The notes: generated by a model from the sequence alone, not told the origin. A DNA stretch of 64,000 nt from an uncultured Chloroflexia bacterium (GCA_963809805.1 CAWELB010000001.1:12447-76446); one strand, 5' to 3'; shown: positions 1-22,436, numbered from the stretch's first letter. Numbers and translations are program-made.

Positions 1-1144
1 CGGCGATGAAGGAGGGAGCGTTCTACTACTTCACGAAGCCGGTCGACTTTCGCGCTGCTGCTGCGTCTGGTTCGCGAGGCTCTCGAGAAACGAGCGCCTC
101 GCCGAGCAGGTCGTCGATCTGCAGGCGCGACTGGCCGCGGCCGGGCGCGACCGGATCGCGGGCGTCGAGTCGGGCGCTGCGCGTCCGCGCTGCAATCTGG
201 CGACGAGCGTCGCTGGTCTGGACACGACCGTGCTGCTCGTCGGCGAGACGGGTACGGGCAAGGAACTCTTCGCGGAGTACATCCACGACCGCAGCGATCG
301 CCGTCGGCGGACCGCTCGTGGCAATCAACTGCGCCGCGCTGCCGGAGCCGTTGCTCGAGTCCGAGCTCTTCGGACACGAACGGGGCGCGTTCACCGGCGC
401 GGTCGCCCGCAAGCCCGGCAAGTTCGAGCTGGCGCACGGCGGCACGCGTCTTCCTCGACGAGGTCGGCGATCTGGCGCTGCCGCTGCAGGCGAAGCTGCT
501 GCGCGTGCTCGAATCGAAGCGCGATCGAGCCGCTCGGGTGGCCAGCACGGCATCGACGTCGACGTCCGGATTCATGGCGGCGACCAATCGCGACCTTCGC
601 GGCTCTGATCGAGGCCGGGCAGTTCCGCGAAGACCTGTACTATCGTCTGGCGGCGTTTCCAATCGTGCTGCCGCCGCTGCGGGATCGCCCGGAGGACATC
701 CGGCACTCGGCGGAGCGATTTCCTCGAGGCAGTTTGCGCGCGCCCACGACAAGGCGGTCGACGGATTCGACACCGATGCGCTCGATGCAATGCAGGCGTC
801 ACGCCTGGCCGGGAAACGTCCGGGAATTGCGCCACACGGTCGAGCGAGCGGTGATCCTCACGACCGGGCGGACGATCACCCGCGCGCAACTCCCGCTGGA
901 ACGGGCCACCGGGGCGGAGACGCGGGTGCCGGCGGATATGGACAACCTGGCCGACCTGCAAGGATCTCGAGCGCGAGGTGGTGCGGCGTGCGGTGGAGGC
1001 CGCCGGAGGCAACCGGACCCGCGCCGCCCGAACCCTGGGAATTACGCGCAACCAGATCCGCTACCGCTTGCGGAAGATGACGCCCGGAGCGTCACTGACC
1101 TCGATGCGCCTGTCCGCCGATTCCTCTCGGCGTCCGGATTCTGA
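1..1144 (+). CDS. sigma-54-dependent response regulator (NtrC family); 5' end outside window, frame broken several times
   Basis: Motifs are spread over three frames: [12 protein letters not shown] (receiver end), [18 protein letters not shown] (Walker A), [15 protein letters not shown] (GAFTGA sigma-54 contact motif), [16 protein letters not shown], and a C-terminal Fis-type [28 protein letters not shown]. Confidence 0.8.
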
Positions 1145-1183
1145 TCATGATCCTGCCGCTGTGCCTGCTGCCGGCGGCGGCTG

Positions 1184-18953: not shown

Positions 18954-20139
18954 ATGCGTGTCCTTCGGGCGTCGGTGCGCCTCTGCTGCGTGCTCGCGGT
19001 GTGCCCTGGCGCGAGCCGGATGGCCGCAGCGCAGGCGGGGGCTCCGGCGTCGGTGCTGCTGCAGCAGGCGGTCTCTGCCGAGGGCGCCATGCAGCTGGAC
19101 GTTGCGCTCGATCGGCCGTATGCGCTCCAGATGGACCGCCCGCGGACGCCGGAGGCGCAGGGCGGCCGCCTGCGGCTGGCCCGCCTGCTGGCACTCGCCG
19201 GAGATCTGCCGGCGGCGCTCCTGCAGTGCCAGGCGCTGCGCGACGGACTTCCGGCGGATCGGCCGGAGCGGCAGCGGGCGCTGGAGTTCGCGACCCTCGT
19301 GGCACGCCGGCTGCTCGACCGGACGCGCGCGCCGGCCGCGCCCATCCTCGAGGCTCTTCCGCTGCGCGGGCTCGCCGAGTTCGACGAACCCGCCGCCGTC
19401 CTGTTGGAGCGATCGGGCGCATGGCTGGTCGCCGATCAGGGCCGGAACCGGCTGGTACCGGGTGACGGCCGACGCCGTGACGCCGGTGACCGCGGGACAG
19501 GAGCCGCAGGCGGCGGCCGAGTTGCCCGACGGCACCCTGATCGTGGGCGGCAGGACCGGGCTGGTCGCGGCACAGGGCGCGGTCACCGCTTCCCCAGTCG
19601 GGGACGTGGGGCGGCCGGCCGCATCCGCTGAGGAGGTCCCGGTCGCTGGCGGCCAATTCGCGAGGCGACCTGTTCGTCGTCGACCGCGACTACGACGGGC
19701 TGCTGCGGTGCGCCGCCGGGGCGCGCGACGTGCGCGCCGTGGGGGCCGCCGGGCCGGCTTCGAACCGTGAAGGTCGGGCCGTCCGACTTCGTGTGGACGC
19801 TCGACGAGCGGCAGGTCGTCCGCGCGTTCGATGACCGCGGGAAGCTGCTGGCGACGATTGGCCCGGTGGTCAACAACGTCAAGCTGGAGCGGGTCGTGGA
19901 CATCGCCGTCGATGCCGCCTACGGCGTGTACCTGCTCGATGCGGAACTCCGGCGGATCGACGTGGTGGCGCTGAGCGTCGCGGCCGACGGCCGGATCGGC
20001 GCCGAGGCGGTGCGGACGATGGCCATTCCCGCCGAGGGCGACCGCGCCCTCAGGAACCCGTCGGCGCTGGCGGTCACGGCCTCCGGGACGCGTGGTCGTG
20101 GCCGGGCGGTCGAGTCCCAGGCTGCTGAGGGTGCAGTGA
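18954..20139 (+). CDS. secreted hypothetical protein (possible TPR-like N-terminus and NHL-type beta-propeller repeats), frameshifted
   Basis: Signal peptide MRVLRASVRLCCVLAVCPGASRMAAAQA. Later segments VVRAFDDRGKLLATIG, VVDIAVDAAYGVYLLDAELRRIDVV and NPSALAVTASG look like NHL repeats. The function is a guess. Confidence 0.35.
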
Positions 20140-22436
20140 TGCGCGGCGATACTTCTTCGCACGGCGCTGCTGTGGCTGGCGGTGCCGCAATCTGCCGGGT
20201 TGGAGCAGGCGCCCGCCGCGCTCGGTGACGGCGGCGCAGCCGGTCCCGGTTCGCCAGGATCTCGGCAGCAGTGCTGAGCGCGGCGCTGGACGCCGCGCGG
20301 CGGCAGATGGACACCGATTTGCCGTCGGCGGTCACGGCCCTGGATCGGCTGGCCGTGCAGTCGATCGAACTGCGCCGGACGCGCGCTGCTGACCGATCTC
20401 GAGCGTCCGATCCACCGGGACCTGTTCCTGCTGCGCGCCAACGGGCACCTGCAGTTGCTGAACAACGACAGGGTCGAGGAGAGCTTCCGCGAGGTGCTGC
20501 GGATCGACCCGTTCTTCACGGGGCAGCTGGCGCCGCGCGAGCAGGAACTGATGGACGCGCTGCGGGCGCGCGAGGGCGGCGTGCTCGAGATCGCGAGCCC
20601 GGAACGTCGGCGAAGATCGTGGTGAACGGCGTGCCGGCCGGTCTGACCGGCGAGCGCCCGACGCGCCTGCCGCTGCTCGCGGGCGAGTACGAGGTCCGGC
20701 TGGAGAAGGAGGGGTTCCAGGCGGGCGTGGCGCGCGTCACGATCTCCGGCGGGCCAGACGGTGACGGTGCGCGATCTGGCGCCCATGCGCCGGGTGCCCC
20801 CGGTGGTGCTGCTGGCCGATCGGGAGGACGTCGAGCTCACGGTCGACAGCGCCGCACCGGCGCGCATGGCGAGATTGCAGGTCCTGCGGAACCAGCTGAC
20901 GGCCGCCGAGGCGGCCGCGGTGGATCAGGCCGTCGACGTCGCGAAGCTCGACGCGGCGTCGGCCACCGGCTATCCTGCTGCGGGATCCGCCGGTCGACCG
21001 CCCGATCGTCGTCCGCTTCCGCCGCGAGTGCTTCGTCGAAACGGTGCGCACGATTGCGGTCACCAGCGACGCGCTGGCGCGGCTGGGTCCCGAGCAGGCC
21101 GTCCTCTGGTTCGGCGACGCCAGCGTCGTGCGGCTCCAGCCGGACGTCGGCACGTTGCGGGTCTCATCGACGCCGTCGGACGCGGACGTGTTCGTCGACG
21201 GCCAGTTGCTCGGGCGCACGCCGTTCGAGCGCGGCGTCTGCTCGGGGCAGCACCGGGTGCGCGTGCGGCATCGCATCGGCGCGTTCCAGGCGGTCGCCAC
21301 CGTCGTGCGGGGCCGGACCGAGTCGGTCGATGCGGCGCTGAAGCCCAGCGTGGCGATGGTCGGCGCCGTCGACACGGCGCAGGGCAGCCTGCGGGCTCTG
21401 CCGGAGCTGGCGGCCCAGATCGATCGGATGCTGCCGTCGGTGGTCACGACCTATCGCGCGGCCGCGCGGGTCGAGCTGCCGCCGGAGATTCCGCGCTGGA
21501 CGGATCAGTCGGCCGTCGATCTGGTCGCGGCGGCGGATGTGAGGGACAGCGCGGCCGTCGTCGCGGCTGCTGCGGCTCGCCAACGAGAACTTCGATGCGC
21601 CGCTGCGTTCTGGCGCGGTGCGGCGGGCGGGGACGGCCGGGAGCGAGGCGCCGGTCGATCTGCTGCTGTTCTGGAGCGATCACGCCGGCGCCCGATCGGA
21701 TCCGGTGGGTGGCGGGCCAGGACGACCTGAAGGCGATCTCGCGCGACTGGACGTGCCGTCCGACGCCACGGAACTCGTGTATCAGAACTACGTGGGCGTT
21801 CGCGTCGTCGACACGGCCTGCTCGGGGGCGCTCGTTGCTGGTCGTCCGGGTCGATGCCGGGCTCGCCGGCGGAGATGGCCGGGCCTGAAGGGCGGGCGAG
21901 GTCGTCGAGGCGGTGGACGGAGCGTGGCCACCGCGGCGCAGTTCGACGATCGGGTGCGCCAGAGAGCGCCCCGGCGAGCTGGTGGCGCTGCGGGTCGTCA
22001 GCGCGGGTCGGCGCCGCGCGTGGTCAATCGTGCCCGTGCAGCGGCGGCGCGCCGTGCGCCGGTGCTCGATCCGACCTATACGGCAACACGCTCATCGCGA
22101 AGCTGACGGTCGGCGGCCATCCTTGCGCCCGCCGGCGCCGATCGGGACCTGTTGGGTTCAATCTGGCGCTCGCGTACATGCGGTTCGGTGACTTACCGTC
22201 AGGCGCTCGATCAGTTGAATGCCGTCGGCAGCGTGGTCGACGGGACACGGGCGTGGGGAAGGGCGCCGTCCTGTTCTTCAGGGCGCGGTGCCTGGAGGGC
22301 ATGGGTGAGCGCGAACAAGGCGGTTGCGCTCTACAAGGAGGTCTCCGGGCTCGGCGATCAGCCGCTGACCGACGATGGAACCGGCGCGGCAACCGTGGCC
22401 CGGCGGCGCCTGGCGGCGCTCGCGCAGACCCCGTGA
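20139..22436 (+). CDS. secreted multi-domain protein with PEGA repeats, a PDZ domain and a TPR-like C-terminus; frameshifted
   Basis: The signal-like start overlaps the previous stop (TGATG). PEGA-like: KIVVNGVPAGLTGERPTRLPLLAGEYEVRLEKEGFQ and LRVSSTPSDADVFVDGQLLGRTPFERGVCSGQHRVRVRH. PDZ-like: VRVDAGSPAEMAG..GDVVEAVDG. Tail: LALAYMRFGD..AVALYKEV. Confidence 0.5.

Follow-up and report, generated by a model that had tools for sequence, protein, structure and literature searches.

A Tad pilus gene cluster with a second, PilB-type ATPase and FHA proteins, conserved in Vicinamibacteria

Composition of the cluster

We analyzed a 64,000-nucleotide stretch of DNA deposited as an uncultured Chloroflexia bacterium (GCA_963809805.1, CAWELB010000001.1:12447-76446; "the window" means this full 64-kb stretch). 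Positions 1-22,434 hold a gene cluster, every gene on the + strand, in which a Tad/Flp pilus gene set is joined to two FHA proteins, a second ATPase of the PilB type, a PP2C phosphatase and a Hanks-type Ser/Thr kinase (Table 1). Window proteins were read from a frameshift-tolerant stitched translation (self-trained codon Viterbi path) and from intact orthologues, and Pfam scans were run on the stitched products. The Tad features present are Flp pilins, a TadA/CpaF ATPase, TadB and TadC, CpaB/RcpC, a secretin and a TadZ domain. A preliminary description of this DNA had called the Tad set complete-looking; all of the listed components were found, with the amendments that cpaE and cpaF form one fused open reading frame (ORF) and that there is a fourth flp gene, which it had not listed. 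Its sigma-54 activator, histidine kinase and phosphatase upstream, its two FHA domains followed by a PilB/GspE-family ATPase (the N-terminal domain giving a weak MshEN match), and its receiver and transmembrane kinase, in which we also see the membrane segment, were all recovered in their places. The two envelope proteins at the end fared less evenly. The gene for the secreted protein described as propeller-like is there, but its product matches no Pfam family, and orthologues are BamD/YbgF-like (NCBIfam) tetratricopeptide repeat (TPR) proteins with no more than a faint NHL signal. The protein described as PEGA/PDZ/TPR has two PEGA domains and a weak TPR match in the window and is collinear with the PEGA/PDZ protein of the related locus L165 (E 2e-15); PDZ was seen in orthologues (PDZ_2 in L165), which also carry TPR, and not directly in the window copy.

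The first motor is a fusion of TadZ and TadA. No stop codon separates the two parts in the window stitch, and all intact relatives encode them as one ORF of 687-695 aa. MinD/ParA matches and an in-frame tblastn match to the TadZ domain identify the N-terminal part, and the best NCBIfam models for the protein are TadA-family and MinD. The second motor, here PilB2, scores best against the NCBIfam PilB model (TIGR02538) at 484 bits, below the equivalog cutoff of 675.65, and reaches 453.6 bits against the GspE model, again below its cutoff (630.25). Its nearest solved structures are the PilB extension ATPases of Myxococcus xanthus and Geobacter, not PilT. Both ATPases keep their Walker A, Walker B, Asp-box and His-box motifs, and in PilB2 these four are invariant throughout its clade and intact in the window. 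That clade was monophyletic in 100 of 100 bootstraps, apart from conventional PilB/GspE, and in no locus does it come with a platform protein, pilin or secretin of its own.

The preliminary description had remarked that two different secretion ATPases in one Tad operon is not the textbook arrangement, and had proposed a phylogeny to see whether the second would cluster with a conventional type IVa pilus or type II secretion system. Both ATPases are present, PilB2 falls in its own clade, and none of 159 control loci pairs the two; these controls comprised 80 diverse Tad loci, drawn from many phyla, without a taxonomic signal, with a CpaF core fragment as probe, and 79 diverse PilB/GspE loci. 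For most members of the PilB2 clade an MshEN match is precomputed in Pfam. MshEN receptors of cyclic di-GMP carry a tandem consensus, RLGxx(L/V/I)(L/V/I)xxG(L/V/I)(L/V/I)xxxxLxxxLxxQ. Compared with this consensus, PilB2 preserves part of the first motif (RLAELL...Q), in which other residues stand in for both Gly, whereas R and Q are missing from the second. Cyclic di-GMP binding cannot be inferred.

The three tandem Flp ORFs each begin with a hydrophobic N-terminus of the form G-Q-x-x-[ST]-E-Y, of the G/xxxxEY type. Their Pfam support is weak, and we recognized them by this motif and by comparison with the Flp proteins of Luteitalea, a genus of related bacteria. Three small ORFs with the same motif (GQT.TEYLMI.G in Luteitalea) lie in the same position in Luteitalea and in L197, a Vicinamibacteraceae metagenome-assembled genome (MAG). 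The fourth Flp carries a GQ..[ST]EY motif as well. A window Flp gave a tblastn match at the same position in L081, an Acidobacteriota MAG, and all relatives have an ORF of 58-83 aa there; the Luteitalea sequence is GQTTTEYLMIAGI. The TadG-like protein is 33% identical over its full length to a Luteitalea PF13400 protein and also occurs in L197 and L198, and the second TadE/TadF-like protein has positional equivalents in L166 (Luteitalea), L197 and L198.

The CpaC-like protein has 95 homologues of 385-432 aa, about a third of them with a Pfam Secretin (PF00263) match. An AlphaFold2 model of the Luteitalea orthologue, built from a 58-sequence alignment (pLDDT 80), starts with a signal helix; a pilus_N domain rich in beta structure and a single alpha/beta N-type domain come next, and a disordered linker leads to a C-terminal core that is likewise beta-rich. 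Its best matches in the PDB are GspD (2.6e-11), PilQ, InvG and pIV. Because the TM-scores are low, the assignment rests on the ranking of these matches and on PF00263; the modeled protein is a short secretin without an N0 domain. We recognized no TadV, TadD or RcpB in the locus. For the prepilin peptidase (TadV/CpaA), no Peptidase_A24 match was found among the window products or in the precomputed Pfam annotation of ~31 kb of the Luteitalea locus, and the enzyme may be encoded elsewhere, as reported for Bdellovibrio.

Over its first 41 kb, the window has a G+C content of 69-75%. Both a G+C frame plot at third codon positions (GC3) and the Viterbi path place coding on the + strand from position 1 to ~24.3 kb, with the frame shifting every 100-300 nt (145 switches in 24.4 kb) and no intact gene longer than ~425 codons in the broken part. 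The Viterbi stitch replaced a plain ORF listing and a GC3 filter, both of which were defeated by the frameshifts. The switches are not enriched at homopolymers and occur in random context, with apparent insertions exceeding deletions ~2.3:1. Orthologous loci in other assemblies have long, unbroken ORFs, the window products are highly similar to them and keep all catalytic motifs (BLOSUM-based distance ~0.23-0.27 for the CpaF core), and housekeeping genes with no relation to the cluster, as far as 41 kb, contain frameshifts at a similar density. For these reasons we take the frameshifts as most likely errors of an unpolished or poorly polished long-read consensus rather than mutations, an origin that the indel spectrum and the restriction to sequence above 70% G+C also fit. 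Nanopore homopolymer error was considered as their source and dropped after the negative homopolymer test, in favor of generic unpolished long-read error.

Table 1. Genes and features of the cluster at positions 1-22,434 of the window
Feature	Position	Strand	Evidence
Sigma-54-dependent activator (NtrC/PilR-like)	1..1100	+	Pfam Sigma54_activat 1.2e-51, AAA_lid_14, HTH_8
Membrane histidine kinase	1100..2055	+	Pfam HAMP 5.6e-19, HisKA 1.9e-11, HATPase_c 7.5e-25
Candidate sigma-54 promoter GGGCAT-N5-TTGCT	2218..2232	+	-24 GG and -12 GC kept
PP2C-type Ser/Thr phosphatase	2271..3022	+	Pfam PP2C_2 5.4e-15, PP2C 4.8e-11
Three tandem Flp-type pilins	3050..3721 (~3050-3245, 3255-3463, 3505-3721)	+	Stitched translation, motif; weak Flp1_like E 0.004
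TadE-like minor pilin	3745..4190	+	Pfam TadE 1.8e-6
TadG-like protein (N-terminal PF13400 'Tad')	4190..5084	+	Pfam Tad 6e-4
Second TadE/TadF-like minor pilin	5084..5545	+	No Pfam match; Q-A-M-T-E hydrophobic N-terminus
CpaB/RcpC	5610..6440	+	Pfam RcpC 6.6e-23, SAF 1.7e-11
Short divergent Tad secretin (CpaC/RcpA-like), Pro/Ala-rich insert	6470..7985	+	Pfam T2SS-T3SS_pil_N 6.7e-12
Fused TadZ::TadA (CpaE::CpaF)	7985..10085	+	T2SSE 5.4e-66; MinD/ParA-like N-domain
TadB platform protein	10090..10960	+	Pfam T2SSF 3.4e-11
Fourth small Flp-like gene, between tadB and tadC	10960..11130	+	Stitched translation, contains PPEYVVLIGVTTSIAMIVF
TadC platform protein	11130..12080	+	Pfam T2SSF 2.5e-18
DUF192 protein	12084..12432	+	Pfam DUF192 2.9e-9; clear reading of N-terminal half only
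Large FHA membrane protein, sensor-like	12442..13900	+	Pfam FHA 2e-10; orthologous to L165 FHA666
Small FHA protein (FHA, single transmembrane segment, helical/TPR-like C-terminal domain)	13950..14890	+	Pfam FHA 2.1e-10
Second motor, PilB-type ATPase (PilB2)	14887..16720	+	T2SSE 1.4e-97, weak MshEN; N-terminal MshEN/T2SSE_N-like domain
Stand-alone receiver	16724..17100	+	Pfam Response_reg 2.5e-8
Hanks-type Ser/Thr kinase	17111..18950	+	Pkinase 2.8e-43; one transmembrane segment, Pro/Ala-rich spacer, beta-rich extracytoplasmic domain
Secreted TPR/NHL-like protein	18951..20080	+	No Pfam match in window copy; 28% identity, E 6e-11, to L162 NHL/TPR protein
PEGA x2 envelope protein, last gene of the cluster	20250..22434	+	PEGA 7e-19, weak TPR

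Conservation of the arrangement in Vicinamibacteria

A full-length PilB2 probe was swamped by generic PilB/GspE proteins and returned one true relative, L081, among species-representative genomes. The L081 ATPase is 52% identical to window PilB2 over its full length (generic PilB, at most 36%), its CpaF is 70% identical to the window CpaE::CpaF, and its genes are syntenic, in the order CpaB, CpaC-like, CpaE::CpaF, TadB, small Flp, TadC, three FHA, PilB-type ATPase, PP2C and DUF192. An intact orthologue searched against a large protein collection matched more than 120 clusters with identities of 57% or higher, all of MshEN+T2SSE architecture. Where a source is named, it is Luteitalea, Vicinamibacterales or Acidobacteria, and the complete Luteitalea sp. 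TBR-22 genome is among them. With a probe made from the clade-specific N-terminal 152 residues of PilB2, we recovered 30 species-level loci, essentially all from Acidobacteriota/Vicinamibacteria. The system thus occurs in at least 30 species-level genomes of soil, groundwater and sediment Acidobacteria. Window PilB2 is 55-58% identical to the Vicinamibacteria clade, and the window lies inside that clade in the CpaF and PilB2 trees with 100% bootstrap in each. From these identities and bootstraps, the sequence places the window as a rather deep-branching member, or a close relative, of Vicinamibacteria. Its source organism is absent from the genome collection, where exact 51-mers of the window had no match, and from the SRA runs, which contain only 5% of its words.

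The preliminary description had asked whether the FHA/kinase/second-ATPase block stays next to Tad genes in related genomes. In a tblastn census its FHA and ATPase genes did so without exception: CpaF, TadB, TadC and FHA genes lie directly upstream of the PilB2 gene and co-oriented with it in 19 of 19 species-level loci, namely those of the 30 whose upstream flank reaches at least 6 kb. Every context that we fetched individually (L161/L166, from Luteitalea; L162, a JGI contig; L163/L164; L165; L197; and L198) shows the same core. Among the controls, a PilB-type ATPase was found within 10 kb of none of the 80 Tad loci from other phyla, and CpaF, TadB or TadC near none of the 79 conventional PilB/GspE loci. 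DUF192 accompanies roughly a third of the 80 control Tad loci, and FHA matches there are rare and weak. The arrangement is therefore conserved across Vicinamibacteria and is not accidental.

Gene junctions are tight within the conserved block. Luteitalea has 4-bp start/stop overlaps through TadZA/TadB/flp and at FHA/PilB2, and a 1-bp overlap at PilB2/PP2C; in L198, 4-bp overlaps occur at the PP2C/kinase and kinase/flp junctions. Around the core we distinguished three layouts. Layout A, of the Luteitalea type, runs PilB2-PP2C-p182-DUF192 in ~18 loci and has, where the region is seen, a Ser/Thr kinase directly upstream of the flp genes. Layout B runs TadC-DUF192-FHAx3-PilB2-(p182)-kinase-TPR/NHL-PEGA/PDZ (L165, L168, L169, L184, L191 and L196). 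Layout C retains the core only (L163/L164, L175 and L176), as does L167 apart from a p182-like gene; L162 combines A and B. DUF192 directly follows TadC in L163, L165, L175 and L176. The window has layout B with a receiver in place of p182, PP2C upstream of flp (compare L198) and two FHA genes.

The protein here called p182 is a conserved secreted protein of ~182-193 aa without a Pfam or NCBIfam match (L161 12648-13196; L162 12851-13402; L165 11847-12428), and it may serve as a pilotin-like or periplasmic accessory. It is present in most relatives and absent from the window, where the stand-alone receiver fills the equivalent slot. The receiver has no similarity to L165_193, and relatives have either the secreted protein or nothing at that place.

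The kinase/phosphatase/FHA triad that the preliminary description saw at the locus recurs in part. A Ser/Thr kinase, a PP2C or both accompany the cluster in most relatives, with positions that vary and with neither gene in the fetched flanks of the core-only loci. The kinase gene is directly upstream of flp in Luteitalea and L197, and L198 has the order PP2C-kinase-flp. The sigma-54 activator and histidine kinase pair was seen in the window only, with no counterpart at the corresponding place in relatives. Public annotations of these genes read 'hypothetical', 'GspE/PulE family' and 'pilus assembly protein N-terminal domain-containing'. Our full-text literature search turned up no account of any Tad system, acidobacterial or other, that combines FHA adaptors with a second ATPase of the PilB type; a Tad variant with these features is previously undescribed.

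Signaling proteins and a possible phospho-threonine switch

In all three types of FHA protein found in the relatives, the FHA domain is N-terminal and the residues that bind phospho-threonine, GR...S-[RK]-x-H...N-G, are conserved. The modeled domain superposes on those of the phospho-threonine readers GarA/OdhI, FhaA and Bdellovibrio DgcB with TM-scores of ~0.8. The two smaller proteins consist of FHA, a linker, a single transmembrane segment and a helical/TPR-like C-terminal domain; the window small FHA protein is 33% identical to L165 FHA310 over 269 aa. The large FHA protein is confined to this clade (~40 clusters). In the AlphaFold2 model of its Luteitalea orthologue, the FHA domain is followed by a disordered Pro/Ala-rich linker of ~200 residues, a transmembrane segment, a compact alpha/beta periplasmic domain (pLDDT ~97), a second transmembrane segment, HAMP-like helices and a PAS-like domain. 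As modeled, this is the body of a transmembrane sensor in which an FHA domain replaces the kinase output. A whole-protein Foldseek search matched the FHA domain and returned nothing for the periplasmic or C-terminal domains. The linker, which is cytoplasmic, carries one to three copies of the conserved motif [DE]-[KR]-T-x-hydrophobic-hydrophobic-(P) in four lineages (L161 5677-7638 and orthologues), with a remnant D-R-T in the window near nt 12,820. The threonine of this motif is a plausible candidate as target of the kinase and ligand of the FHA domains.

The kinase keeps its HRD, DFG and VAxK motifs and the phosphatase its metal-binding Asp residues. The window kinase domain is 43-44% identical to the locus-linked Ser/Thr kinases of L162, L165 and Luteitalea, and the window PP2C shares 39% identity with its L081 counterpart, which is encoded after the second ATPase. 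Two large Ser/Thr kinases (~780-980 aa) are encoded divergently and immediately upstream of flp in L166 (852-6137) and L197 (624-6171); their extra-catalytic regions have no annotated domains.

At the upstream end of the window cluster, the sigma-54 activator retains the C-terminal part of a receiver, cut by the window edge, followed by an AAA+ sigma-54 interaction domain, an AAA lid and a Fis-type helix-turn-helix; the histidine kinase is presumed to be its partner. A candidate -24/-12 site lies ~40 bp before PP2C begins, in the sole AT-richer intergenic gap and right after the activator and kinase genes. This position is suggestive of a sigma-54 promoter. In type IVa systems, PilS/PilR and sigma-54 control pilin genes, a parallel for the window arrangement, and the PilS/PilR-like pair probably drives transcription of the PP2C-flp operon.

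We are very confident of the composition of the cluster, that is, a Tad cluster in which a fused TadZ::TadA, a PilB-type ATPase and two or three FHA proteins of the inner membrane, their FHA domains cytoplasmic, are fixed parts in all members sampled, and a Ser/Thr kinase and PP2C are recurrent ones. The conserved linkage supports physical and evolutionary coupling of the Tad set to the FHA proteins, the second ATPase and the kinase/phosphatase. On balance we favor, with some reserve, the reading that the cluster encodes an adhesive Tad/Flp (type IVc) pilus machine of distinct design, with two motors and phospho-threonine control. How such control would act can be proposed more tentatively, and we would not yet back the following scheme against all others. 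The kinase would sense an envelope or surface cue through its extracytoplasmic beta-rich domain, perhaps together with the TPR/NHL and PEGA/PDZ proteins, and would phosphorylate the threonine motifs in the large FHA linker and possibly other targets. The FHA domains of the membrane adaptors would bind these phospho-threonines and form an inner-membrane scaffold at TadB/TadC, which would recruit or release PilB2 relative to TadZ::TadA. The machine might thereby switch between states, for example between extension by PilB2 and retraction or idling by TadA, or between ON and OFF, and PP2C would reset the switch.

Several observations weigh against this two-motor, phospho-threonine-controlled reading. 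No Ser/Thr kinase or PP2C occurs within the fetched flanks of the core-only loci L163/L164, L175 and L176 or of L167, where the kinase may be encoded elsewhere or be dispensable. The window copy has two FHA genes only, against three in the relatives. The threonine motif varies and is weakly recognizable in the window because of the frameshifts, which, if real, would mean that the window copy is dead. The sigma-54 pattern is not above chance across the window, and the candidate site has two mismatches. The phosphorylation targets, the FHA ligands and any contact of PilB2 with TadB/TadC are presumed.

Tad pili are partly defined by having one bifunctional motor ATPase, and they raise the questions of how this motor switches between extension and retraction and of what triggers assembly. 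A second, PilB-type motor as a fixed part contradicts the single-motor hallmark. With this motor, its fixed membrane FHA adaptors and, in most members, a linked kinase/phosphatase pair, the clade is a natural experiment on motor specialization and on post-translational, phospho-threonine gating of a type IV filament machine. Vicinamibacteria are among the most abundant acidobacterial classes in soil. The cluster also bears on the attachment of these abundant, little-understood organisms to surfaces or other cells. The complete TBR-22 genome, which carries the cluster, offers a route to experiments.

Comparison with known machines and alternative explanations

The Vicinamibacteria cluster shares with the canonical Tad systems (Caulobacter Cpa, Aggregatibacter Tad) its Flp pilins, TadE/F/G-like proteins, CpaB/RcpC, secretin, TadZ and TadA domains, TadB and TadC, and a DUF192 neighbor. 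It differs in the fusion of TadZ to TadA, the second, PilB-type ATPase, the two or three FHA transmembrane proteins and, in most loci, the Ser/Thr kinase and PP2C. Canonical Tad has a single bifunctional ATPase (bioRxiv 10.64898/2026.07.08.737194). With type IVa PilB (TIGR02538; M. xanthus, Geobacter), PilB2 has full-length architecture and catalytic motifs in common; unlike it, PilB2 scores below the model cutoff, forms a separate clade, and is found always inside a Tad cluster and never beside pilC, pilT or pilMNOPQ.

In the type VI secretion system of Pseudomonas aeruginosa, the transmembrane Hanks kinase PpkA, the PP2C phosphatase PppA and the scaffold Fha1 gate assembly post-translationally. 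The shared logic is a kinase, a phosphatase and an FHA scaffold inside the gene cluster of a secretion machine, an analogy without homology beyond the domains. In contrast to that system, a Tad pilus would be controlled here, and the FHA proteins are integral to the membrane, one of them with the transmembrane-periplasmic-transmembrane-HAMP-PAS body. The type VI threonine-phosphorylation pathway has also been cited as an analogy for the Kil apparatus (PMC8460266), and our cluster parallels both that pathway and the unexplained FHA proteins of Kil.

Kil has one ATPase, KilF, whose N-terminus is fused to an FHA domain; its secretin is short and lacks N0, and its FHA proteins are many. It has no TadG, RcpB or TadD and is reported only from predatory Deltaproteobacteria (Seef et al. 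2021, PMC8460266). In M. xanthus its genes form two clusters, with many conserved genes of unknown function (PMC8460266). The preliminary description had raised a relation to Kil, flagged as inference. In favor of it, our cluster is likewise Tad-derived, has a short secretin without N0 (as modeled), is enriched in FHA proteins (two in the window, three in relatives) and contains many conserved genes of unknown function. Against it, the N-terminal extension of CpaF is a MinD/ParA-like TadZ domain rather than FHA, two T2SSE ATPases are kept in 19 of 19 relatives, the window and its relatives encode a TadG-like protein with PF13400 (RcpB and TadD were undetected here too), and the genes form one cluster, in Acidobacteriota. 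We do not file the locus as Kil, because no ATPase is fused to FHA, there are two ATPases instead of one, TadG has a counterpart, and the deep nodes of the CpaF tree have bootstraps of 3-23%. KilF-type FHA::CpaF fusions, with FHA judged by eye, also occur in L001, L005, L037, L040, L064 and L076, which come from Lentisphaeria, Spirochaetaceae and unclassified Proteobacteria/Deltaproteobacteria MAGs, beyond the predatory orders of PMC8460266.

Bdellovibrio bacteriovorus has an 'atypical TadZA fusion ATPase', and its tad genes, which are dispersed, with the prepilin peptidase elsewhere, are neighbored by genes for FHA, TPR and histidine-kinase proteins (bioRxiv 10.64898/2026.07.08.737194). The TadZ::TadA fusion is shared with it and with the Bdellovibrionota loci L019, L044 and L051. 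The Bdellovibrionota Tad loci examined differ in having no PilB-type ATPase, and no sister relationship to them is supported. Our neighbor-joining CpaF tree (no M. xanthus Kil sequences included) recovered the Vicinamibacteria clade at 100%, with 3-23% bootstrap for deeper groupings. A kinship to Bdellovibrionota TadZA and to the FHA::CpaF groups appeared in an unbootstrapped version only and, given these values, was not used. The fusion is the rule in Vicinamibacteria; on whether it arose once or twice, the same 3-23% bootstraps apply.

These comparisons bear on the best-surviving alternative, that the locus encodes an apparatus for predation like that of Kil or Bdellovibrio, in which a machine derived from Tad would attach to prey or kill it on contact. 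Several FHA proteins in the cluster, the short (~400-aa) secretin with its one N-type domain, the likeness of the motor fusion to the Bdellovibrio ATPase and the TPR and histidine-kinase neighbors all fit such a device. So do the unbootstrapped tree, which sets the clade beside the Bdellovibrionota TadZA and FHA::CpaF groups, and the control scores of TadB, the highest of which is from Bdellovibrionales. The features that define Kil are missing, however (there is no FHA::CpaF, there are two ATPases and a TadG-like protein is present), and the deeper CpaF nodes lack support. We know of no report of predation by cultured Vicinamibacteria, and our literature search found nothing. We therefore regard a predation apparatus as unlikely, and a looser functional analogy, in which this would be a contact-triggered, FHA-gated Tad machine like Kil, is possible at about the same low level. 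A combined version, in which a class-wide, FHA-docked two-motor Tad nanomachine is a Kil-like or Bdellovibrio-like device that attacks or grips cells and is switched on by the envelope-sensing Hanks kinase, seems a shade less likely still. If a predation-type device were true, Tad-based predation would extend beyond the 'deltaproteobacterial' predators, and Vicinamibacteria would attack other bacteria.

Two modules might instead merely be adjacent, with the FHA proteins, PilB2, kinase, PP2C and envelope proteins forming a separate signaling or secretion device, or a type IVa pilus or type II secretion remnant, that does not act on the Tad pilus. PP2C, the kinase, p182, NHL and PEGA change position or are absent between genomes, the second ATPase is most similar to type IVa PilB, and the large FHA protein resembles a stand-alone transmembrane sensor. 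Mere adjacency is nevertheless hard to reconcile with strict adjacency and co-orientation in 19 of 19 loci over a class-level clade, or with stop/start overlaps that run through TadZA-TadB-flp and FHA-PilB2-PP2C. DUF192, a common Tad neighbor, stands before or after the FHA/PilB2 block and so brackets it inside the Tad cluster. The supposed module would also lack its own platform protein, pilin, prepilin peptidase and secretin, and none of the 79 conventional PilB/GspE loci is similar. We judge this explanation slightly more doubtful than predation. Last, a decayed pseudogene array, in which the frameshifts are genuine and the copy is dead, would account for ~145 frame switches without homopolymer association beside intact ORFs in the lower-GC part of the window, and for the missing third FHA gene and p182, but it is very improbable in view of the high amino-acid conservation with intact catalytic motifs, the similar frameshift density in unrelated housekeeping genes and an indel spectrum and GC restriction that fit an unpolished or poorly polished long-read consensus.

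Beyond the cluster, the PEGA gene is followed by an acylphosphatase gene, apt and a tRNA-Arg gene, which mark the cluster end; tRNA-Arg(CCT), at 23452-23528, is the sole RNA gene detected in the window. Housekeeping genes with the same kind of frameshifts lie at 24242-26281 (-), 29479-30489 (-), 33881-35158 (+) and 35447-36833 (-), and include agmatinase/deoxyhypusine-synthase-like fragments, MutS domain V, phosphatidylserine decarboxylase, CDP-alcohol phosphatidyltransferase and a second HAMP-HisKA-HATPase kinase. A block of ~20 kb at 41500-61500 has 39-58% G+C within surroundings of ~72%, which may mark an island gained by horizontal transfer or a chimeric assembly. It encodes an aldo/keto reductase, methylmalonyl-CoA mutase, phosphofructokinase, an ABC transporter (substrate-binding protein, fused permease and ATPase), an Eco57I/MmeI-like type IIG restriction-modification enzyme (55157-58300) and two unknown ORFs (58634-59891) in its lowest-GC stretch. 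The frameshifts are limited to the part above 69% G+C (1-41000), and the lower-GC part (42000-64000) has intact ORFs of up to 1047 aa, a contrast that suggests either GC-dependent failure of polishing or a chimeric join of two genomes. The lower-GC part also holds an unbroken DnaE fragment of 757 codons on the minus strand (61716-63986).

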